Assembly: GCA_004284765.1 (NCBI GenBank)
Contig: NQJD01000005.1
Location: 30,001 to 62,000, forward strand
Reading direction: 5' to 3'
From: Candidatus Electronema aureum
GTDB lineage: Bacteria > Desulfobacterota > Desulfobulbia > Desulfobulbales > Desulfobulbaceae
DNA: 32,000 bases
The notes under the pieces are model-generated. The model had not been told where the DNA came from, did not search any database, and worked only from the letters and a program-made list of their open reading frames with translations. Every line of letters begins with the position of its first letter. Position 1 is the stretch's first letter. The translations under genes were made by a program, and so were the position numbers. Positions 2,614 to 16,915 of the stretch are shown piece by piece.

Positions 2614-3051
2614 ATGAGTAAAACATTAGTTGAAATGACCGCTGAAATCATCCAGTCCCAAATCAGCGGTTCCAGTATGAATACCGACGAAATCAAGGCA
2701 GCTCTGCATCACACCTATCAGACCCTGAAAGAGTTGCAAGAGGCTGAGGCTGTTGGCGGTGGCGTGGAGGAAAAGGATGTTGCGCCTTCTATGGACCCAA
2801 AACGTTCTATTCGCAAGAATGAAATCGTTTGTTTAGAATGCGGCCAGTCGTTCAAGATGCTGACCAAACATCTGAAGTCACACAACATGACTTCAAGGGA
2901 ATACCGTAAAAAATACGGTTTTGCCAGCCGTCAGTCGCTCTGTGCTAAGGCACTGTCCGATGAGCGTTCTGCGGCCAGCAAAGAGCGTGGCATTCATCCT
3001 AACCTGCGTAAGTCTATCGCCGAGCGGGCTGGCAAGAGCAAAAAGAAGTAA
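2614..3051 (+). CDS. MucR/Ros-family zinc-finger transcriptional regulator
   Basis: CLECGQSFKMLTKHLKSHNMTSREYRKKYGF is the Ros/MucR C2H2-like zinc finger and flanking motif. The ATG at 2614 follows AAGGAG with 6-nt spacing. The longer track ORF (from 2548) lacks an RBS. Confidence 0.85.
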   Translation: MSKTLVEMTAEIIQSQISGSSMNTDEIKAALHHTYQTLKELQEAEAVGGGVEEKDVAPSMDPKRSIRKNEIVCLECGQSFKMLTKHLKSHNMTSREYRKKYGFASRQSLCAKALSDERSAASKERGIHPNLRKSIAERAGKSKKK

Positions 3052-3861: not shown

Positions 3862-4570
3862 TTCGGTGTTCCGCAAATCTTTTATCCTTCCCTTATTGTT
3901 CCTTTTTCTGCTGACGGCTACCGGGTTACATGAAGCCCGCGCTGCTTCCGAATCGGAGCTGCGTCAGCAGGTCGAAAATATGCAGAAAGTTTACCGTAGC
4001 TTGACCAGTTTCAGCTTTGATTTTCGTCAGCTTACTCGCAGCGGTGGGCGTGATCGGCATGGTGCGGGCAACAGTATTTTTTATCGGCCCGCAAGCGGTA
4101 GTACGGGCATTATGCGCTGGAACTACAATGAGCCGGATAAACAAATTATTCTGAATGACGGCAAAAAATTGTCTGTTTATACGCAAAAGGACAAACAAGT
4201 GCTGGTTTCATCAGCAGCAGAGTTAGAATCTGACATCACCTATTCTCTCTTCGCAGGAAATCGTAACTTAACCGATGATTTCAACGTGCGACCTGCCGAG
4301 AGTCGTTTTACCACCGGTGGTATTCGTCAGGATATTCAAGTGGCGCAGCTCGTTCCAAAACAGCCGCACGGTCAAATTAAGGCAGTGCATGTATGGTTTG
4401 ACGGCAAATCTATGATTCAAAAATTGGTAATGGAAGATCATTTTGATACGCTAACGGAATTGGTATTCAGCAATATCAAATTCAACGCTCTTCCTGCCGG
4501 TTCTGCCAAAACGGTGGAAGAGCTTGTCCGGCTGGATTTGCCACCGGGAACTGAGGTGGTGGAGCAGTAA
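3854..4570 (+). CDS. LolA-like outer-membrane lipoprotein carrier family protein
   Basis: N-terminal signal peptide (LPLLFLFLLTATGLHEARA). A LolA-like pattern is present (SFSFDFRQ..., ...KQIILNDGKKLSVYTQKDKQV, ...LVPKQPHGQIKAVHVWFD). The start overlaps the murI stop by 8 nt. Confidence 0.65.
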   Translation: MCNSVFRKSFILPLLFLFLLTATGLHEARAASESELRQQVENMQKVYRSLTSFSFDFRQLTRSGGRDRHGAGNSIFYRPASGSTGIMRWNYNEPDKQIILNDGKKLSVYTQKDKQVLVSSAAELESDITYSLFAGNRNLTDDFNVRPAESRFTTGGIRQDIQVAQLVPKQPHGQIKAVHVWFDGKSMIQKLVMEDHFDTLTELVFSNIKFNALPAGSAKTVEELVRLDLPPGTEVVEQ

Positions 4571-4697: not shown

Positions 4698-5444
4698 ATG
4701 AAAAAACTTCAAAATATCAATGATAGGTTGACGATGTGCCTAATTGAAGCGGTTAGAGTCTCTTATCTAATCGCTGAATTAAATTATAATAATTTATTAG
4801 AATCGTTAAAGATATTCGATAATTCTAACACGAAATCCGTCGTGTTGATTTATTCTTCGGCATGGACATTGGTTGACATGCTGCATAGATATGGTGATTG
4901 TATAGGGAAAATACGAGGGCTTTCTCATAAAGATGAGAGATATTCTCATTTTTCTAGTTGCATCAAAGAAATAAATTCTTTTAGAAATTACATACAGCAT
5001 TTATCTGGCTCAAAAACTTCCCCTAAATTGGCAAAAGATGATGTGTATCCAGTGATAGGCGCAATATCCTATTCATTTGATAGTGTAACTTCAAAAACAG
5101 TAGCATATGCAACATTGCCAACCGGGACTGTCTTTAATACGTTAGCATACAGTGTAAATGATAAAAAATATGAAATAGATATTAAAATAGGATGTCTTGA
5201 CAAGGAGCTGTCATTAATGAAGTCAATAGAAAAAATGAAAAGTTGTCACTCTTATTTCAATGAATTTCTTCTTTCCAAGGGATTCATTTCAGATGAAGAG
5301 CTGAAAGTTCTTTATCTTGAGAGTGGGCCTATCTCTACGAATATAATTTCAGAAGAAGGGATTGATCTCTCTGATATTTATAGAGATATATTTAACAATC
5401 ATAAACATAACGTGCGATTAAAAGCAACTATTGTTAAATATTAA
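4698..5444 (+). CDS. hypothetical protein in a low-GC insert; candidate HEPN-like (RNxxxH motif) protein
   Basis: 248-aa ORF with AGGAGG 6 nt upstream of the ATG. It is markedly AT-rich (about 32% GC by eye) compared with its neighbours. SFRNYIQHL (R96...H101) fits the Rx4-6H HEPN signature, with the typical Asn after Arg. No other family was recognised. Confidence 0.6.
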   Translation: MKKLQNINDRLTMCLIEAVRVSYLIAELNYNNLLESLKIFDNSNTKSVVLIYSSAWTLVDMLHRYGDCIGKIRGLSHKDERYSHFSSCIKEINSFRNYIQHLSGSKTSPKLAKDDVYPVIGAISYSFDSVTSKTVAYATLPTGTVFNTLAYSVNDKKYEIDIKIGCLDKELSLMKSIEKMKSCHSYFNEFLLSKGFISDEELKVLYLESGPISTNIISEEGIDLSDIYRDIFNNHKHNVRLKATIVKY

Positions 5445-5503: not shown

Positions 5504-6667
5504 ATGACCCAAGAATCCTTTGCAGACCTGTTCCAAGAAAAAACCGTCAATAGCCAAGATATCCGGCCTGGCGATAAGATAGAGGCAGTTATTGCCGACA
5601 TCAGCGGCGAGAACATTTTTCTTGATCTCGGCGGCAAAAGCGAGGGTGTCCTTAATGCAGCCGAATGCCGCAACGCAGACGGCGAGCTGACTGTCAGCGT
5701 TGGCGATAAAGTTTTCGTCTTTTTCTTGGCGCGACGTGGCGGTGAAATGGTCTTTACCGCTCGTGTCGGTTCAGGACATGTCAGCAGTGAAGAGCTGGAG
5801 CAAGCGTTTCAAGCGGGCATTCCGGTCAAGGGCAAGGTAACAGCGGAAATTAAAGGCGGCTTCCAAGTGACGGTAGCTGGCCAGCGAGCCTTTTGCCCCT
5901 ATTCTCAAATGGGCTTGCATCGGGTCGAATCAGCGGCAGATACCTATTTAGACCAAGAAATGATCTTTAAGATCATAGAATTTGGCAACAAAGGTCGCAA
6001 TATCATCGTCTCCGCCCGTGCTGTGCAGGAACAAGAGCGCGAGCAGCGCAGAGAGCAACTTCGCGAGAGCCTGCACGAAGGCGACCGGGTTGAGGGCACT
6101 GTCAGCTCAATCCGCGAATTTGGGGCCTTTGTTGATCTCGGCGGCGCGGACGGCCTGATTCCGATTTCCGAACTCGCTTGGGGGCAAACTGAGCGGGTTG
6201 ATGATGTTCTCAGTATCGGCCAGCAAGTCGCAGTGGTAATCAAAAAAATTGACTGGGCCAAAGAGCGCATCTCTCTCAGCCTGCGTGATACGCTGGAAAA
6301 TCCTTGGGATCGGGTCGAGGAAAAATACGCACCTGCCAGTATTCATAACGGCACGGTTTCGCGGTTGACCGCCTTTGGCGCGTTCATTTCCTTGGAGCCG
6401 GGCGTTGACGGCTTGCTGCACATTTCCCGGCTGGGTTCAGGTCGTCGCATCAATCATCCTCGCGAAGTATTGTCTATTGGCCAAGCTGTAACGGTAAAAA
6501 TCGACGGCATAGACAAGGAGCAACAGCGCATTTCCTTGGTGCCAGAAGATTACACCTCCAAGGCAGAAGAGGATCAAAATTACACCCCGCCGCCTAAAGA
6601 CGCTGAACCCAAGTCAATGGGTACTTTTGCCGATCTGCTCAATAAGGCAGCAAAAAAGAAGCGGTAA
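5504..6667 (+). CDS. S1 RNA-binding domain protein (four S1 repeats; ribosomal protein S1-like)
   Basis: MTQESFADLF resembles an S1 N-terminus. Repeated S1-fold motifs are present (G.V..I..FGAFVDLGG.DGL.HISEL, FGAFISLEPGVDGLLHISRL). At 387 aa it is shorter than canonical RpsA. Confidence 0.8.
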   Translation: MTQESFADLFQEKTVNSQDIRPGDKIEAVIADISGENIFLDLGGKSEGVLNAAECRNADGELTVSVGDKVFVFFLARRGGEMVFTARVGSGHVSSEELEQAFQAGIPVKGKVTAEIKGGFQVTVAGQRAFCPYSQMGLHRVESAADTYLDQEMIFKIIEFGNKGRNIIVSARAVQEQEREQRREQLRESLHEGDRVEGTVSSIREFGAFVDLGGADGLIPISELAWGQTERVDDVLSIGQQVAVVIKKIDWAKERISLSLRDTLENPWDRVEEKYAPASIHNGTVSRLTAFGAFISLEPGVDGLLHISRLGSGRRINHPREVLSIGQAVTVKIDGIDKEQQRISLVPEDYTSKAEEDQNYTPPPKDAEPKSMGTFADLLNKAAKKKR

Positions 6668-6719: not shown

Positions 6720-7715
6720 CTACGCCGCTTGCTGCAACGCCACCGCTACCGCTACCGAAGCCCCAACCATCGGGTTGTTGCCCATACCGATAAAGCCCAT
6801 CATTTCGACATGTGCAGGCACTGAGGACGAACCCGCAAACTGCGCGTCACAGTGCATCCGGCCCATCGTGTCAGTGAGACCGTAAGAGGCTGGGCCAGCA
6901 GCCATGTTGTCCGGATGCAGCGTCCTGCCAGTGCCGCCGCCAGAAGCGACAGAAAAATACTTCCGGCCCAGCTCTAAACATTCCTTCTTGTAGGTGCCTG
7001 CGACCGGATGCTGGAAACGGGTGGGGTTAGTCGAGTTGCCGGTGATCGACACATCGACCAACTCCAAATGGTTGATCGCCACGCCTTCGCGCACATCATC
7101 GGCACCGTAACAGCGCACCTTGGCGCGTTCTCCGATAGAGAAGGATTTTTCCAGCACGATGTTAAGTATGCTGCCCGCATAGTCGTATTGCGTCTTCACA
7201 TAGGTAAAGCCGTTGACGCGCGAGATGATATAGGCCGCATCCTTGCCCAAACCGTTAAGAATCACACGCAGCGGCTCAGTACGCACCCGATTAGCGGACT
7301 TGGCAATGCCGATGGCTCCTTCCGCCGCCGCAAAAGACTCATGCCCAGCAAGAAAAGCGAAGCATTTGGTTTCCTCGCTGAGGAGCCGCGCTGCCAAATT
7401 GCCGTGACCAATGCCCACCTTACGATTTTCCGCCACTGAGCCGGGAATACAGAACGCCTGCAAGCCAATACCCAAAGTGGAGGCGATTTCTACCGCTTTT
7501 TTCTGCCCCTTTTTCAGAGCAATGGCGGCACCAGCGATATACGCCCAGCAGGCGTTTTCAAAACAAATCGGCTGCACCTCTTTGACTAAGGCATAAACAT
7601 CCACGCCCGCATCTGAGCTTATTTGCTTGGCTTCGGCCAAATCTTTGATCCCGTGTTCAGCCAGCACCGCATTGATCTTGTCGATTCTCCGCTCGTATCC
7701 TTCAAAAAGTGCCAT
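6720..7715 (-). CDS. GGGtGRT-motif protein (uncharacterised family)
   Basis: Contains the eponymous motif SVASGGGTGRTLHPDN. The start at ATG 7715 is preceded by GGAAGGAG. The longer track ORF (to 7826) overlaps the upstream gene. Confidence 0.85.
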   Translation of the reverse strand: MALFEGYERRIDKINAVLAEHGIKDLAEAKQISSDAGVDVYALVKEVQPICFENACWAYIAGAAIALKKGQKKAVEIASTLGIGLQAFCIPGSVAENRKVGIGHGNLAARLLSEETKCFAFLAGHESFAAAEGAIGIAKSANRVRTEPLRVILNGLGKDAAYIISRVNGFTYVKTQYDYAGSILNIVLEKSFSIGERAKVRCYGADDVREGVAINHLELVDVSITGNSTNPTRFQHPVAGTYKKECLELGRKYFSVASGGGTGRTLHPDNMAAGPASYGLTDTMGRMHCDAQFAGSSSVPAHVEMMGFIGMGNNPMVGASVAVAVALQQAA

Positions 7716-12085: not shown

Positions 12086-14170
12086 TCATCCCCGCCATGT
12101 CTTATACCGCTGCCAAGCTGCCTCGCCTACTGCTCTTAGGTTGATGCCAAAGCCGAAAAGCTCTGGCTCGGCTTTGAGATTCTTGCCTACCACATCAAGA
12201 AACGACTCCTTATCTTTTAAACCGTTAGGCACATTCTCCAGCAGCTTCAGCATCTTTTCCTCATCCACCGTATCGAGCAGCTCGCGTACCTTATATGCCT
12301 GCTTCGAGCCTTCTGGGATGTACTTTTCTATGCCTTGTTCAGCATAGTTGAGCAGCGTATTGTAATCAGCAGTGCGCTCTGGGTCATCAGGCATCGGCAC
12401 CCGCTCGCTCACCTTCAGACCAGCAAAGCCGGTGTTGATTTCTCGGAGCGTGAGCATGATCACAGTGAGGAAGGCTTTACGCTGCGTGCCTGTCACCGCG
12501 ATATGAATACGCCGGGTCTCGTTATCCGCCCGCACCACTGCGGTTGCTTCGAGCAGCGGATTTGCCAAGACAACGCCGCTCCGCCAGCGCAGCTTGTCCT
12601 TGATTTCGTGGTGCCGCTTGACGATGAAGCGCGGCATGACCGAAGGCGGTAGAAAGTCCTCATAATGGAGGACAAAGCGGAGCGCGTCCTCGCGCTTGAA
12701 ATCAAAGGACGGCTCTGACACATCGAGGAGCTGGGGCAGCAGAACCTCTTTGGCATTGAGTTCGTAGCACAGCTCGAACTTCTTCATCAGGTTGATGATA
12801 AAGATGTAGTCGTTTCGTTCATAACGATAGTCGTCACCCTCCTGCCATGCCAGTATCTCCTTGAGCGCATCTAACTTGAGCAGCCCTTTGCCTGCGGCAA
12901 TCAACTCGGCATTGATAATTTTATACACCGCGCCTGTCACCCACTTTGGATCAAGGATGTTGTTGCCGTCCAGCTCAAATTCATCAAAGTGAATGACAAT
13001 GCCGAGATCGTGCAGGAAAGCAGCCAGCACATTGCGGCTGATCTTACCGCTCACGCCTGCTTCCCGGCAGACTGCCTCGAACTGCTCATAGCTGATGCGC
13101 GGCTCGTTCATCTGCTCCAGCTGCGCCTTTGCTCTGAACCAACTCGTAGGCCATTCATTCTTGGTCAGAGGGACGTTGTTCAGCTCCTCGCACAGTGCTT
13201 GCTTGAAGGCTTCGATGCCGTTGCCAGTGTTGCAGGAAGTCTTCCAGAAGCCCTTGATGAACGGGTATTTCTCTTTCAGAAAAGGCCGGTTAAGATCAAA
13301 GCCGGGATTGGTGTCATACTTATTCAGCACAACTAAGACCGGTGAGCCACCGCCGAAGCTCTCAATATACCTCAGCCAGTATTCGGGCCGCTCGTCACGC
13401 CTGCCATCGAGGACAAGAACATACAGGCTGCGGCGCGAGAGGAAAAACTGGTGCGTGGCGTGCATGATCTCCTGTCCGCCAAAGTCCCAGAGCTTGCAGC
13501 GGATGTGCTGGCTGCCGGTATCGAGTTGCCAGTCCTTGATGCGGATGCCGTGAGTGGTGGCCTCGTGCGGATTGAACCGCTCATCGCGCAGGCAGCGGGT
13601 GAGCGAGGTCTTGCCCGACGCGCCTTCGCCTATAAGAATGATCTTGACCTCAGCTAATGTCTGCCCGCCTTCTTCGAGCGAGGTGAAGTATTCGCGAATG
13701 GCTTCGATGCCTTGGACAGCGAGTTCGTAGGGCGGGGAGATGAGGGGGTTGTTGCGCAGGTAAAGCTCTCTTAACCTGGGTAGCTGAACGATCTCCGGCG
13801 GGAGACTGGTAAGCTGGTTGTAGCGAAGGTTAAGCCAGGTGAGATTGGTCAGCTCAACAATCTCACCTGGCAGGGTGGAGAGATGGTTGTTGCGGAGGTC
13901 AAGCGTGGTGAGATTCTTCAGCTCAAAGAATTTTTGCGGCAGGATAGAAAGCTGGTTATCGTAAAGCAAAAGCACTTGCAGCTTGGTTAGCTGAAAGAGT
14001 TCTGGCGGCAAGGAGGTAAGTTGGTTGCCATTAAGCCAAAGCCCATATAGATTCGTTAGCTGAAAGAATTCTGGCGGCAGCTCGGTCAAGCCTTGATTGC
14101 TCAGTTCAAGCGTCGTTGCCCCTGTCTCCGCCGCCTCTTTAATCAGCTGCAACGCTTCTTCTTTGCCCAT
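12086..14170 (-). CDS. Roco-family protein: LRR - Roc GTPase - COR, plus ~110-aa unassigned C-terminal tail
   Basis: Five to six 23-aa LRRs (LTELPPEFFQLTNL..., LTSLPPELFQLTKL...). Roc G-motifs are GEGASGKT (P-loop), WDFGGQE (switch II) and VLNKYD (G4), followed by a COR-like region. The start MGKEEA at 14170 follows GGAGGAA. The longer track ORF reads through the upstream palindrome (RDTTCRVPT) and is rejected. Confidence 0.85.
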   Translation of the reverse strand: MGKEEALQLIKEAAETGATTLELSNQGLTELPPEFFQLTNLYGLWLNGNQLTSLPPELFQLTKLQVLLLYDNQLSILPQKFFELKNLTTLDLRNNHLSTLPGEIVELTNLTWLNLRYNQLTSLPPEIVQLPRLRELYLRNNPLISPPYELAVQGIEAIREYFTSLEEGGQTLAEVKIILIGEGASGKTSLTRCLRDERFNPHEATTHGIRIKDWQLDTGSQHIRCKLWDFGGQEIMHATHQFFLSRRSLYVLVLDGRRDERPEYWLRYIESFGGGSPVLVVLNKYDTNPGFDLNRPFLKEKYPFIKGFWKTSCNTGNGIEAFKQALCEELNNVPLTKNEWPTSWFRAKAQLEQMNEPRISYEQFEAVCREAGVSGKISRNVLAAFLHDLGIVIHFDEFELDGNNILDPKWVTGAVYKIINAELIAAGKGLLKLDALKEILAWQEGDDYRYERNDYIFIINLMKKFELCYELNAKEVLLPQLLDVSEPSFDFKREDALRFVLHYEDFLPPSVMPRFIVKRHHEIKDKLRWRSGVVLANPLLEATAVVRADNETRRIHIAVTGTQRKAFLTVIMLTLREINTGFAGLKVSERVPMPDDPERTADYNTLLNYAEQGIEKYIPEGSKQAYKVRELLDTVDEEKMLKLLENVPNGLKDKESFLDVVGKNLKAEPELFGFGINLRAVGEAAWQRYKTWRG

Positions 14171-14235
14171 TGTCTTGTTCCTCCGTGGGTGTTTTTGCCG
14201 CAACCATGTAGGGACACGACATGTCGTGTCCCTAC
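14171..14235 (-). promoter_or_regulatory. conserved leader plus perfect 28-bp palindrome upstream of the Roco gene (module copy A)
   Basis: GTAGGGACACGACATGTCGTGTCCCTAC (14208-14235) is a perfect palindrome. The sense-strand leader TTGCGGCAAAAACACCCACGGAGGA is near-identical to copy B at 15045-15107. Confidence 0.8.
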
Positions 14236-14265
14236 GGCCTGTCATCATGCCTCGAACGAATCTTG

Positions 14266-14398
14266 CTCCATAACCTATGCAACGCAAAGAGGATACCACT
14301 ATCCTCCTCAAGAGCATAACGTTATCCTCTTTGGGAGCATAGTACTATGCTCGGTAAGAGCATAGCGTTATGCTCCGCATGAGCATCGCGGCATTCTG
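14266..14398. repeat. tandem array A: six units at a 23-bp period, each an 18-bp (imperfect) palindrome of GAGCATAnnnnTATGCTC type
   Basis: Unit starts are 14266, 14289, 14312, 14335, 14358 and 14381. Units: ctccataacctatgcaac, gaggataccactatcctc, gagcataacgttatcctc, gagcatagtactatgctc (perfect palindrome), gagcatagcgttatgctc, gagcatcgcggcattctg. Spacers are 5 nt. Confidence 0.9.
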
Positions 14399-14461
14399 TT
14401 CAAAACACAGCAGCAAGGGAAAGTCAACGGCAAAGTGGTACGGGCAGGACGGCAAGGGTCG

Positions 14462-14701
14462 TCAGGCTCTCTTTGCCTGCGTGAAATCATAAACAGGGAT
14501 ATGCAGCATCTTGACCGGCTCGGTCTTCTTTTGGGCGATCTCCATCAGCATGTCCGCAACAGCCGGAGAATACACTTTCTCGCCGCAATGTGCGCAGACA
14601 TCAGCCGGAACATGCTCAACCAGCACATAGGCTTCCTCATCGTCATAGCTGAACGTCACTGTGCCGCTTCTGAGCGGCCCTCCGCAGAACACGCATCTCA
14701 T
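14462..14701 (-). CDS. YgiT-type zinc-finger protein (MqsA-N-terminal-like antitoxin without an HTH domain)
   Basis: MRCVFCGG...ADVCAHCGEKVYS has the CxxC...CxxC YgiT pattern. An AAGGAG RBS lies inside the upstream gene. The start overlaps the DUF4258 stop (ATGA). Confidence 0.8.
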   Translation of the reverse strand: MRCVFCGGPLRSGTVTFSYDDEEAYVLVEHVPADVCAHCGEKVYSPAVADMLMEIAQKKTEPVKMLHIPVYDFTQAKRA

Positions 14702-15005
14702 TGCCGGTGTCTCCTTGTCTTTCCTTCAATCCACTCTTCAGCATCTGGTTCGTATGCAGTGACAACGACCACCAGGGGCGGCAGTGTGATCAGCACGTGC
14801 AATGCTCTGCCCAGCCACGTCATCCCGCATATCAGACAGCTTGGGAGTATTTGTCGTGAGGATACTCTTCGATGATCTCGTCATGCAGCACAACAGCTTC
14901 CATCTCTTCTCGCCTGATCGAACGCTTGATCATCCTCTTCACGGCATGGTCAGAGAACTTGTAGTTTCCCGCCCTGATCTGCTCACGTATTGCATGGATG
15001 TCCAT
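14698..15005 (-). pseudogene. DUF4258-family toxin gene interrupted by a 1-nt frameshift
   Basis: Not in the ORF track. Frame 1 reads MDIHAIREQIRAGNYKFSDHAVKRMIKRSIRREEMEAVVLHDEIIEEYPHDKYSQAV*. The next frame continues SCLICGMTWLGRALHVLITLPPLVVVVTAYEPDAEEWIEGKTRRHRQ*. The total of 308 nt is not a multiple of 3. Adding one C to the CCC run (14843-14845) restores DKYSPSCLI and a 102-aa DUF4258-like protein. Confidence 0.75.
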
Positions 15006-15017
15006 ATTGTCTAATCT

Positions 15018-15044
15018 TCATCGCAAGGATTCTTCTTTGTCCAT
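15018..15044 (-). other. 8-codon mini-ORF (MDKEESLR*) occupying the start-codon position of module copy B
   Basis: It follows the conserved GGAGGAG RBS. Its first 15 nt (ATGGACAAAGAAGAA) match the Roco start ATGGGCAAAGAAGAA at 14 of 15 positions. It stops 12 nt before the DUF4258 ATG, which has no obvious RBS of its own. Whether it is translated is unknown. Confidence 0.3.
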
Positions 15045-15107
15045 AGCCTGCTCCTCCGTGGGTGTTTTTACCGCAAACTGTAGGGGCGAAAAATTTTTCG
15101 CCCCTAC
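15045..15107 (-). promoter_or_regulatory. conserved leader plus perfect 28-bp palindrome upstream of the toxin-antitoxin pair (module copy B)
   Basis: GTAGGGGCGAAAAATTTTTCGCCCCTAC (15080-15107) is a perfect palindrome. The leader TTGCGGTAAAAACACCCACGGAGGA matches copy A. Confidence 0.8.
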
Positions 15108-15162
15108 AATGGTGCCATCATAGCTGCGTCCGTCCTCTTTTCATCCGCCTTGGCAAACTAAG

Positions 15163-15337
15163 AACCATAGCCTATGCACGGTGCAAACCATAGGCTATGC
15201 TCCCTGCGAGCATAAGCTATGCAGCGCAAGAGCATAGGTTAAGCTCGATGGGAGCATAACGTTATCCTCTGTACGAGCATAAGCTATCGAGGCAGGCTCG
15301 ATAAGCTGTCCGAACGCTGCTGCATAGCCTATCGAGA
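15163..15337. repeat. tandem array B: eight units at a 22-23-bp period, same palindromic family as array A
   Basis: Unit starts are 15163, 15186, 15208, 15230, 15252, 15275, 15297 and 15320. Units include aaccatagcctatgcacg, aaccataggctatgctcc, gagcataagctatgcagc, gagcataggttaagctcg, gagcataacgttatcctc (identical to the third unit of array A, at 14312), gagcataagctatcgagg and ctgcatagcctatcgaga. Confidence 0.85.
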
Positions 15338-15456: not shown

Positions 15457-16878
15457 CTACCACGTCACCATGTAGCAGGAGAGCGTGCGGCCTTCTTCAA
15501 GGTCTTTGCCCTCCATGTAACGCTGCATGGACTCCGCCGCCACCTTGCCTTGATAGACGGCCTTGGCTGCGGTCTGCGGGCCAAGCACGTCATCACCACC
15601 GGCAAAGATCCACGGCACCGAAGTCTGGAGGGTGCGGGGATTGACTGTGTAGGTGCCCCACGATTCTAACTTGAGATCAGTACCTCGGTCGGCCTCGTGC
15701 TGCACGTTCTGGCTGATGGCAGGAATGACCGCATCCGCCTCAATGATGAAGTTCGAGCCTGCCTGCTCCACTGGGCGACGGCGGCCTGAAGCATCAGGCT
15801 CACCTAACCCCATGCGCACGCACTCTAACCCGGTGAGCTTGCCGCTGGCATCAGCATGAATCTTGACCGGAGCAGCCAAGAACTCAATCCGCACGCCTTC
15901 CTCCTCCAAGTGCCGCACCTCTTCCTTCGAGGCAGGCATCTCTTCTTTCGTGCGGCGGTAGAGGATGAAGACTTGATCCGAGCCAGTGCGCAAGGCGGTA
16001 CGGGCTACATCAATAGCCACATTACCGCCACCCACCACCACGACCTTTCTGCCGATCTGCATCTCCTCACCGGTAAGCACCCGCCGAAGATAGTCCACGC
16101 CATGCAACACGCCCTTGGTATTCTGCTCGCCCTCAATGCCGAGCTTCTTGCCCTCATGCGCGCCAACGCCGATGAAGACCGCTTCGTAGCCCTCTTCGTG
16201 CAGCTCGTGCAGGGTCTTGTCCTTGCCAATGGTTATGCCGAGCTTGATCTCCACGCCACAGCTCTTGAGTGAAGCCAGCTCTGCTCCGATGATGTCGCGA
16301 GGCAAGCGGTAATGAGGAATGCCCACAGAGAGCATCCCACCAAAGACTGGCAGTGCCTCATAGATCGTGCATTTATAACCCTGATGCGCGAGCAGATACG
16401 CGGCGGTGATGCCTGCCGGGCCAGAACCGACAATGGCAGCCTTGCGTCCGTTAGGCAGGGCGCAGGCATGGGACATGGCTTTGCGCTTGGCAATCATCCA
16501 GTCGGTTAGGTAGCGTTCCAGCATCCCGATGGCCACTGGCTCGCCGCTCTTGCCGCGCACACAGCTGCCCTCGCACTGGAACTCGTGCGGGCAGACGCGG
16601 GAGCAGACCGAAGGCATGGTGCTGGTCTCACGCACCTTCCAGTAGGCTTCCTCGAATTGCTTCTCCCGCAGCAAACCAATGAAGCCGGGGATGTCATTGC
16701 GGATCGGACAGCCCTGCACACAGGCAGGCTTCTTGCATTGCAGGCAGCGGTTAGCCTCCAGCAAAGCCGTTGCCTCGTCGTAACCTGCGGTCACTTCAGC
16801 AAAGCTCCTGATCCGCTCCGCAGGCGCAAGCTCTTTGGGATGCTGGCGGGGAATGGCCATCCGTTCTTTGGTGTTCAT
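15457..16878 (-). CDS. glutamate synthase small-subunit-like NAD(P)H-dependent FAD/Fe-S oxidoreductase (GltD/SudA family)
   Basis: The N-terminus carries Cys clusters (CLQCKKPACVQGCP, CSRVCPHEFQCEGSC). Two Rossmann motifs are present (IVGSGPAGITAA, VVVVGGGNVAID). The start at ATG 16878 lies 6 nt after AGGAG. Confidence 0.8.
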   Translation of the reverse strand: MNTKERMAIPRQHPKELAPAERIRSFAEVTAGYDEATALLEANRCLQCKKPACVQGCPIRNDIPGFIGLLREKQFEEAYWKVRETSTMPSVCSRVCPHEFQCEGSCVRGKSGEPVAIGMLERYLTDWMIAKRKAMSHACALPNGRKAAIVGSGPAGITAAYLLAHQGYKCTIYEALPVFGGMLSVGIPHYRLPRDIIGAELASLKSCGVEIKLGITIGKDKTLHELHEEGYEAVFIGVGAHEGKKLGIEGEQNTKGVLHGVDYLRRVLTGEEMQIGRKVVVVGGGNVAIDVARTALRTGSDQVFILYRRTKEEMPASKEEVRHLEEEGVRIEFLAAPVKIHADASGKLTGLECVRMGLGEPDASGRRRPVEQAGSNFIIEADAVIPAISQNVQHEADRGTDLKLESWGTYTVNPRTLQTSVPWIFAGGDDVLGPQTAAKAVYQGKVAAESMQRYMEGKDLEEGRTLSCYMVTW

Positions 16879-16915
16879 GGGCATCTCCTGTAACAAGTTG
16901 GTTCAAAAAGAGTGA

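Follow-up and report, generated by a model that had tools for sequence, protein, structure and literature searches.

The 32,000-nucleotide stretch of the cable bacterium Candidatus Electronema aureum analyzed here (contig NQJD01000005.1, positions 30,001 to 62,000; hereafter the window) carries, ahead of a Roco GTPase gene and of a toxin-antitoxin insert, two related tandem arrays, A and B, of 17-18-bp palindromes repeated every 22-23 bp. We give an even chance to the explanation that these are cooperative protein-binding arrays on duplex DNA acting in transcription control, with protein binding, cooperativity and the direction of the regulatory effect all inferred from sequence comparison. 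The explanation draws on the geometry and statistics of the units, on the recurrence of related arrays in the cable bacteria, and on their fixed register with the promoters of a lineage-expanded gene family. The arrays belong to a lineage-wide class of phased arrays that is undescribed in the literature searched, as the literature on repeats in cable bacteria and Electronema and on DUF4469 yielded no description of such arrays.

Structure of arrays A and B

14266..14398, unstranded: array A, 6 units with a 23-bp period, 18-bp palindromes of the GAGCATA-N4-TATGCTC type, 5-nt spacers
15163..15337, unstranded: array B, 8 units with a 22-23-bp period, in which 17-mers of the GAGCATA-N3-TATGCTC type predominate

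The six-unit and eight-unit arrays reported at these positions by the first-pass annotation are real, as supported by Tandem Repeats Finder (TRF), direct reading and shuffled sequences. The units of array A, read from the sequence, start at 14266, 14289, 14312, 14335, 14358 and 14381, and those of array B at 15163, 15186, 15208, 15230, 15252, 15275, 15298 and 15321. TRF delimits array A as 14275-14386 (period 23, 4.8 copies) and array B as 15189-15287 (period 22, 4.5 copies). The sequence GAGCATANNNNTATGCTC, allowing up to 3 mismatches, has six matches in the window, five of which are in the arrays; shuffles lead one to expect 1.36, and none of 100 shuffles reaches six. Chains of at least three phased palindromes with 7-bp arms arise at a rate of 0.13 per shuffled 32 kb.

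The unit GAGCATAGTACTATGCTC at 14335 is indeed a perfect palindrome, and GAGCATAACGTTATCCTC is common to both arrays, as had been noticed: it occupies 14312 in array A and 15252 in array B, where it is the only 18-mer. The final two units of array B are degenerate, and the gene-proximal unit of array A, at 14266, is a 17-mer variant with CATAnCCTATG. The gene-proximal units had been regarded as degraded, but they represent a conserved 17-mer variant, TGCATAGGYTATGG, which is invariant across the six homologous Roco upstream regions considered below.

Each array unit consists of two 7-bp half-sites, GAGCATA and its complement, flanking a 3- or 4-nt centre, and successive units are separated by spacers of 4-6 nt. 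The period holds at 22-23 bp for 17- and 18-bp units alike, the length of the spacer compensating for that of the unit. In the 7-4-7-5 layout, half-sites alternate in orientation with one per 11-12 bp. Because every unit is a dyad, the junctions between units (TATGCTC-N5-GAGCATA) are dyads as well and both registers are palindromic; the arrays are therefore best described as rows of alternating half-sites every 11-12 bp.

The arrays are located outside real coding sequence, as originally proposed. A 743-aa open reading frame (ORF) at 12086-14317 overruns array A, but the called Roco gene (694 aa) starts at 14170, with a GGAGGA ribosome-binding site ahead of it and the same N-terminus in loci L009, L012 and L016. 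A 69-bp tandem repeat found by TRF at 13811-13957 is coding and not regulatory, and corresponds to the leucine-rich repeats of the Roco protein (23-residue units).

Half-site statistics

Unit statistics were obtained from 32 distinct 18-mers collected from 12 loci. G1, A2 and T17 are invariant in this set, and position 4 is either C or G, chosen independently in each half, which gives the half-site GAGSATA; by shared half-sites, the window arrays are members of this GAGSATA group. The stem pair 4-15 is complementary in 17 of the 32 units, and the mismatched unit GAGCATAACGTTATCCTC is unchanged in five loci (the window, twice, and L006, L009 and L012). At the unit centre, pair 8-11 is complementary in 15 units and pair 9-10 in 17, where 8 of the 32 are expected, i.e. 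the centre is self-complementary at about twice the chance frequency. Another form of half-site, GACATAA/GACCTAA, retains the outer GA..TC with its inner CATA..TATG core shifted, and hybrid units that combine one half of each type are common.

These statistics fit symmetric half-site recognition on duplex DNA and not selection for a hairpin, which is disfavoured because a hairpin has no need of pairing within its loop and would not accommodate C opposite C at its centre. Rfam covariance models at the gathering score had no match in the whole window, and ARAGORN found no tRNA or tmRNA there.

Lineage-wide distribution of the array family

A strict two-unit pattern scanned against one genome per species (185,579 species) retrieved 10 loci, 8 of which belong to Electronema/Desulfobulbaceae, with at most 3 loci in any one metagenome-assembled genome (MAG); a four-half-site pattern added 3 further metagenome contigs. 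No related arrays were found in viral contigs, 72,556 plasmids or 50,697 phages. Two of the matches were rejected as family members, namely L007 (Peribacteria), an isolated coding-region match, and L014 (Rhodospirillaceae), a short AT-rich operator-like cluster of 2-3 sites. The phased copies expected elsewhere if the element were portable are thus present at other loci of the lineage.

The family is not restricted to accessory cassettes, to which the first-pass annotation had tentatively assigned it, and some of the arrays adjoin housekeeping genes. Its members occur upstream of Roco genes (in two chromosomal contexts), upstream of metW, between pstS with a conserved small ORF and pstC (L008, L013), immediately behind the stop codon of a transketolase gene, where a toxin-antitoxin island begins or ends (L006), and upstream of the gene for a 358-aa HU-like/DUF4469 protein. 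The products of the small ORF between pstS and the array (L008 5279-5560; L013 1646-1996) share 83% amino acid identity and have no Pfam match, and in this gene cluster a terminator-like hairpin follows the array ahead of pstC.

Over the 131 positions of array A and its proximal flank, the window and L016 have 3 differences, none of which falls in a half-site. For the same pair of loci, identity is 91.7% in the gltD coding sequence, 74% in the first 300 nt of the Roco gene and 60% in the spacer between gltD and the array. This conservation supports a function of array A. Among tandem repeats with a period of at least 10 bp in 142 kb of sequence, a sample enriched by the way the loci were chosen, period 23 is represented by 14 arrays, periods 22 and 45-46 by 7, and each other period by 1-3.

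Several other repeats were observed at these loci. Two additional palindromic arrays with 23-bp spacing were found by accident, at L013 6482-6570 and L018 12046-12128. In one of them, CATCG-GG-CGATG alternates with CGGGAT-N4-ATCCCG, and a TTGACA promoter for a pair of genes encoding a 108-aa and a PIN-like protein follows after about 40 bp; in the other, the units are based on GATCGAAACCATGGTTTCGATC. A small CRISPR array (L017 2850-3095; 4 repeats of GTTGGAGTACCTACCCTATGAAGAGGGTATTAAGAC) starts ~90 nt beyond the other side of the palindrome array, and a single degenerate CRISPR repeat is left at L010 4405-4440.

Promoter register at the HU-HIG/DUF4469 loci

The 358-aa HU-like/DUF4469 family has several paralogs per cable-bacterium genome. 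A search with the family gave 583 matches, and the best 120 of these 583 are all at least 55% identical. The source-genome protein P0120 was represented by the cluster member P0122. An AlphaFold model of the 358-aa protein (pLDDT 88) matches 4FMR, the nearest experimental structure, a Bacteroides HU-HIG protein with an immunoglobulin (Ig) domain. The HU-HIG/Ig clade has been described as a Bacteroidetes radiation; the Ig domain of 4FMR occupies the DNA cleft, and Ig-fused HU-HIG proteins have been argued not to clasp DNA (PMC5499826). The ~358-aa HU-HIG + DUF4469/Ig paralogs are expanded in Electronema and Electrothrix, with the same strong promoter and the same length of the 5' untranslated region (loci L010, L011, L017, L018, L020, L021, L024 and L026-L030).

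A promoter of the form TTGACA-17-TAnnnT was identified in all 11 informative HU-HIG loci; its hexamers are constant, the sequence of its spacer is variable, and the ATG follows 55-60 nt past the -10 element. In 10 of these 11 loci an array with a 23-bp period lies 20-110 bp upstream of the promoter, mostly in divergent intergenic regions. The arrays fall into five sequence types: GAGSATA dyads (L010, L011, L017, L027); direct or inverted repeats of TTGCAC/TTGATC-GAGAG (L018, L021, L028); GAGACAC-GCCC-GTTACTC (L024); GAGTCAC-CCTC-GTGACTC (L026, an E. aureum-like contig); and GCCTGAA-CCTC-TTCAGGC (L029). Irrespective of sequence type, the dyad or repeat centres are found at -73 to -77, -96 to -100, -119 to -123 and -142 to -146 from the centre of the -35 element, which corresponds to phase 4-8 modulo 23 in nearly all cases; in L027, which has 22-bp steps, the distal units drift to about phase 3. 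The TTGATCGAGAG arrays of L018 are direct repeats without hairpin potential, yet both period and register are kept.

Since these arrays are upstream of the promoter, they are outside the transcript of that HU-HIG gene. This position, together with the existence of types that are incapable of forming hairpins, indicates that the conserved feature is a periodic duplex geometry in register with the position of RNA polymerase.

Autoregulation by the downstream HU-HIG/DUF4469 protein was downgraded to a weak candidate, because the array type ignores protein phylogeny and the Ig domain of 4FMR is described as sitting in its DNA cleft. For instance, L010 and P0001 have the GAGSATA type in common at 57% protein identity, yet the L010 protein is 60-61% identical to proteins of the TTGCAC type, and the array types of P0120 and P0112 differ although these proteins are 69% identical.

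Proposed mechanism and its weak points

Both the geometry and the sequence statistics agree with the expectation, voiced for these arrays from the outset, of a dimeric protein that binds cooperatively to duplex DNA. Dyad units joined by dyad junctions would allow a sequence-specific protein with two self-association interfaces to cover 130-180 bp with a chain of alternating head-to-head and tail-to-tail contacts. With 23 bp, or 2.2 helical turns, for each dimer, successive dimers would be rotated by ~70 degrees and the chain would wind gently around the helix, with about five units making up one superhelical turn. In the window, the arrays would be part of the Roco 5' regulatory region, and the same 22-23-bp architecture may serve as a general upstream module in cable bacteria. 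Because of the fixed register with the sigma-70-type promoters of the HU-HIG/DUF4469 family, the array would modulate transcription most likely as an upstream activator or architectural site, and an array between pstS and pstC could act as a roadblock.

Several observations weigh against this explanation. No regulator gene adjoins the arrays in the window, and the binding protein is putative. No convincing promoter was found downstream of array A or B, so the promoter architecture of the HU-HIG loci is not simply transferable to Roco. Some family members occupy places typical of repetitive extragenic palindromic (REP) elements, either between the pstS-associated ORF and pstC or just after a stop codon (L006), and divergence at the pst locus is faster in the array than in the sequence on either side, with turnover of units. 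The type of array does not track the phylogeny of the HU-HIG proteins, and this lack of covariation leaves no pointer to the binder. The conserved register could be partly inherited from a common ancestral upstream region, and the loci represent a small sample that was collected by pattern search and from one chosen gene family.

Two candidates were considered for the missing components. A sigma-70 promoter between arrays A/B and the genes was rejected, as it matches at only 9 of 12 positions and falls inside the flank of a REP insertion that is absent from L004. A gene for a Ros/MucR-type zinc-finger DNA-binding protein at 2614-3051, ~11 kb from the arrays, encodes a candidate binder; members of the Ros/MucR family oligomerise on DNA in alpha-proteobacteria.

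A broader and rather improbable extension would be a modular cis-regulatory system of cable bacteria, with a fixed 23-bp register, swappable half-sites of at least five types and matching self-associating binders, possibly the HU-HIG/Ig proteins. The arrays in such a system would wire together rapidly evolving families (the HU-HIG, Roco and toxin-antitoxin genes and a CRISPR leader), and would also provide homology handles for moving cassettes from one locus to another.

Duplication of the Roco upstream region

12086..14170, minus strand: Roco gene (LRR-Roc-COR-A-COR-B), 694 aa, preceded by array A
14171..14207, minus strand: Roco leader and ribosome-binding site TGCGGCAAAAACACCCACGGAGGAACAAGACA
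14462..14701, minus strand: MqsA/YgiT-type zinc-finger antitoxin, 79 aa
14698..15005, minus strand: DUF4258 toxin gene, frameshifted
15018..15044, minus strand: Roco 5'-end remnant of 8 codons (MDKEESLR, then stop), homologous to the MGKEEALQ start at 14170 and also present in L004
15045..15079, minus strand: second copy of the Roco leader and ribosome-binding site
15457..16896, minus strand: gltD-like oxidoreductase (Fer4_20 + Pyr_redox_2), the conserved upstream neighbour in the window, L009 and L016

All window genes around the arrays are on the minus strand, in the order trpE, trpG, thioredoxin, gltD-like, array B, 28-bp palindrome, leader, DUF4258 toxin, MqsA/YgiT antitoxin, array A, second 28-bp palindrome, leader and Roco gene. 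The leader is conserved, as had been pointed out, with 93% identity between its copies (14176-14203 vs 15049-15076). The arrays had been viewed as two independent elements, each serving an accessory transcription unit; instead, both are copies of one Roco upstream region, as copy B retains the leader and 8 Roco codons. Six such regions (window A, window B, L004, L009, L012 and L016) can be aligned over array and leader as far as the start codon, and orthologues of array B are present in L009, L004 and L003.

The gene arrangement differs among the related loci. L009 has the order gltD-array B-Roco, and L016 has gltD, then one B-type unit followed by A-type units in the same order, then Roco, without the toxin-antitoxin pair. 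On this comparison, the window is of the form X-TA-X, where TA is the toxin-antitoxin pair and X is the array with the leader and the Roco 5' end, as expected of homologous integration; the L016 hybrid array is the expected product of a deletion between arrays B and A. An ancestral gltD-array-Roco arrangement would have been duplicated around the DUF4258/MqsA insert to produce arrays B and A. The array-TA-array-Roco arrangement recurs behind a transketolase gene in another genome (L006/L015), and L004 has, behind the same toxin-antitoxin pair, an array of GACATAA type, the other half-site variant.

With respect to the inserted genes, the 79-aa neighbour was confirmed to be a YgiT/MqsA zinc finger only, with no helix-turn-helix. 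The DUF4258 toxin ORF is split by a 1-nt deletion into ORFs of 57 and 41 aa, whereas L004 has an intact 102-aa toxin and an antitoxin with a protein sequence identical to that of the window, which leaves the window with an orphan antitoxin and a toxin in decay. The Roco remnant, positioned behind a full leader and ribosome-binding site, may serve the toxin-antitoxin pair as a small upstream ORF. PADLOC returned no defence-system match for the Roco, toxin, antitoxin and HU-HIG proteins.

The toxin-antitoxin island of L006, which is enclosed by the two arrays there, has boundary repeats, partly inverted (CTTGAGCAACGGATAGTTGCA; CCAAGCACA..GTCGTTTGCAGCAAGCCGTTGCAGATAG), at 4513-4533 and 6073-6093; and at 5139-5197, 5940-5977 and 6721-6779. 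They were seen only in L006 and L015, two contigs of one organism. These boundary repeats (CTTGAGCAACGGATAGTTGCA; GCAAGCCGTTGCAGAT) were rejected as a general cassette signal, being absent from the window and all other loci.

REP-like 28-bp palindromes

14208..14235, unstranded: REP-like 28-bp perfect palindrome GTAGGGACACGACATGTCGTGTCCCTAC
15080..15107, unstranded: REP-like 28-bp perfect palindrome GTAGGGGCGAAAAATTTTTCGCCCCTAC, extending to about 15123 with its flank ATGATGGCA

These palindromes do lie 30 and 55 nt from the arrays but, contrary to what their first description implied, they are not a part of the array module; they are separate insertions, and genomes differ in having 0, 1 or 2 of them at this site between array and Roco leader. 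The related metagenomic contig L004, otherwise collinear with copy B, is missing both the palindrome and its ATGATGGCA flank, which points to a mobile insertion of ~45 bp. Members of this GTAGGG...CCCTAC family have an inner sequence that varies from copy to copy and is always self-complementary, and further copies were located in L009 (3446, 3492 and 7636) and L012 (1371). By their sequence, including the GTAG head, the 28-bp palindromes are classified as REP-like insertions that are independent of the array module.

Alternative explanations

The arrays could be a non-functional minisatellite, in which a 23-bp repeat that arose once was inherited by the Roco and HU-HIG paralogs and is homogenised by slippage and unequal crossing-over, with no selected role. 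Units in young arrays are 89-94% alike, spacers included (L010, L018, L024), unit number differs between orthologues, and the paralogous upstream regions are homologous, all as this would predict. However, older arrays keep their half-sites while spacers and centres vary, dyad symmetry is retained in five unrelated sequence types, and the promoter register is maintained within about 2 bp despite complete sequence replacement. Moreover, the coding DNA beside array A is less conserved than the array itself, and the descent of one upstream region does not account for the same half-site at unrelated loci (pst, metW, transketolase). We regard this explanation as rather unlikely.

We also consider it unlikely that the arrays are REP-like units or bacterial interspersed mosaic elements (BIMEs) functioning as RNA or single-stranded DNA hairpins, i.e. 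as stabilisers of mRNA 3' ends, attenuators between cistrons or substrates of REP-associated tyrosine transposases (RAYT-type), and subject to local amplification. The elements are extragenic, palindromic and clustered, with a copy number that varies between orthologous loci; their positions between pstS and pstC (L008, L013) or after a stop codon (L006) resemble those of E. coli REPs; and the single strand of each array would fold strongly (z = -5.9 and -6.1). Selection for hairpins is nevertheless at odds with a central stem pair that is mismatched in 15 of the 32 distinct units, with the conservation of one mismatched unit across species, and with centres that are self-complementary above chance. 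The orientation relative to transcription varies (window vs L006 and L012), ten arrays are upstream of promoters in divergent regions and outside the adjacent HU-HIG transcript, and some types cannot form hairpins. The units are 17-18 bp instead of 35-40 bp and have no GTAG head, the real REP-like family in the region is the separate GTAGGG..CCCTAC palindrome, and the strict pattern has few copies per genome (3 in one MAG). The members at the pst locus and the faster turnover of the array there keep both the REP-like and the neutral minisatellite explanations alive.

Recombination at cassette boundaries, with arrays as the sites where accessory cassettes such as toxin-antitoxin pairs are inserted, exchanged and deleted, was the other role originally suggested for them, and only a part of it stands. 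The arrays do flank toxin-antitoxin inserts: the array-TA-array-Roco order of the window, L004 and L006/L015 represents three lineages and occurs in two chromosomal contexts. The L016 relative, with a hybrid array and no toxin-antitoxin pair, is what recombination between B and A predicts, and the same pair with its 3' flank precedes a GAGCATA-type array in the window and a GACATAA-type array in L004. The flanked inserts and the L016 hybrid show arrays to be involved when cassettes are gained or lost. In contrast, a dedicated recombination-site role appears distinctly unlikely. Neither the window nor the surroundings of the other arrays contain a recombinase or integrase, and there is no attC-like R''-L''...L'-R' structure; the duplication spans the leader and 8 Roco codons, which fits ordinary homologous (Campbell-type) recombination across the entire upstream region and not site-specific exchange at the units; and most arrays (HU-HIG promoters, pst, metW) border no cassette.

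A special case of protein binding would be that Roco is driven by a sigma-54 enhancer-binding protein, with the arrays as its upstream activating sequences. Such proteins bind tandem 17-18-bp dyads, and TGGTTCTTAGTTTGCC (or ..TTTGCA), with GG and GC at the -24/-12 spacing, directly follows array B and its orthologues in L004 and L009, overlapping the last unit. However, this TGGTTC-N5-TTGCC motif follows B-type and not A-type arrays, and the A-type copy has TGGAGCAAGATTCGT, without the -12 GC; the HU-HIG loci with the same arrays use clear sigma-70-type promoters (TTGACA-17-TAnnnT), and one match of 7 bases carries little weight, having a ~2% probability of arising by chance in 300 nt. This makes the sigma-54 variant very unlikely.

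Finally, the possibility that a plasmid or phage replication origin (iterons) or a partition centromere survives here as a chromosomally integrated relic is nearly refuted. Iterons classically have a period of 22-23 bp and sopC-type centromeres classically consist of short palindromes in arrays, but the units here are dyads and not direct repeats, the 32-kb window has no rep, par or mobile-element genes, no similarity was found to 72,556 plasmids, 50,697 phages or viral contigs, and the arrays hold conserved chromosomal positions in several species.

Implications

Cable bacteria are not yet available in pure culture and their gene regulation is almost uncharted. Dispersed and strictly phased dyad arrays offer a concrete handle, as pull-down bait or footprinting target, toward finding a regulator in these organisms; if a binder is found, the arrays should reveal the set of genes that it controls. 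Their promoter register persists when one recognition sequence gives way to another, and they serve to mark gene families that have expanded in the lineage. Even if inert, the arrays would be useful as copy-number markers for strain typing in uncultured organisms. We also found no earlier description of the HU-HIG/Ig expansion in this lineage, of the REP-like insertion polymorphism, or of upstream modules that mediate the gain and loss of toxin-antitoxin genes.

Comparison with known systems

The first-pass annotation could not place the arrays in any described repeat class, and this holds in the present comparison, where CRISPR, REP/BIME, attC, iterons with a rep context and centromeres all fail on their defining features. 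In their mode of action the arrays come closest to cooperative operators (lambda OR/OL, ARG boxes) or to the rows of repeats that omega or ParR coats. CRISPRs have repeats of 23-47 bp and spacers of ~26-72 bp, in place of the 17-18-bp units and 4-6-nt spacers seen here; no cas domains were found among the window genes, and the CRISPR array beside a family member in L017 has a different repeat. No attC structure (57-141 bp, R''-L''...L'-R', GTTRRRY core) was found at the locus, and no integrase among the neighbours.

Plasmid iterons resemble the arrays in their period (22-23 bp, two helical turns) and in having 4-8 copies in direct succession. They are direct repeats bound by monomeric Rep and adjoin rep and an AT-rich unwinding element, whereas most of the arrays, including both in the window, are composed of dyads, with one related type (L018) being a direct repeat. 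None of the arrays is in a replication context, and no rep gene was found among their neighbours.

Enterobacterial BIMEs are similar in being lineage-specific clusters of extragenic palindromes of variable number, sometimes between pstS and pstC. Their REP units are 35-40-bp imperfect palindromes with a GTAG head, arranged in alternating orientation with defined linkers, present in hundreds and mostly acting as hairpins. In contrast, the array units are 17-18 bp long, start with GAG, are probably few per genome and are phased with promoters, and their stems are not maintained (pair 4-15 complementary in 17 of 32). The GTAG head is restricted to the 28-bp palindromes, a REP-like family that coexists separately in the array region.

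The Omega (pSM19035), ParR-parC and SopB-sopC systems resemble the arrays in having long rows of short direct or inverted repeats, which in those systems are coated cooperatively by a small dimeric protein, with several promoters or loci sharing one array type and with DNA and protein wound into a superhelix. Their arrays are plasmid-borne, adjoin the gene for the binder and have periods of 7, 10-11, 20 or 43 bp, whereas those described here are chromosomal and dispersed, repeat every 23 bp and lack a neighbouring par or regulator gene; the window genes encode no Par domains.

The lambdoid operators (OR1-3, OL1-3) and the ArgR ARG-box pairs are alike in having 17-18-bp (pseudo)palindromes at 21-24 bp from centre to centre, with half-site centres ~11 bp apart, and in those systems adjacent dimers bind the duplex cooperatively. 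The arrays differ from them in comprising 4-10 sites instead of 2-3, in lying upstream of the promoter instead of overlapping it, in having no adjacent repressor gene, and in carrying at least five unrelated half-site sequences on the same geometry. As in cooperative operators generally, they consist of 14-18-bp dyads spaced at about two helical turns.

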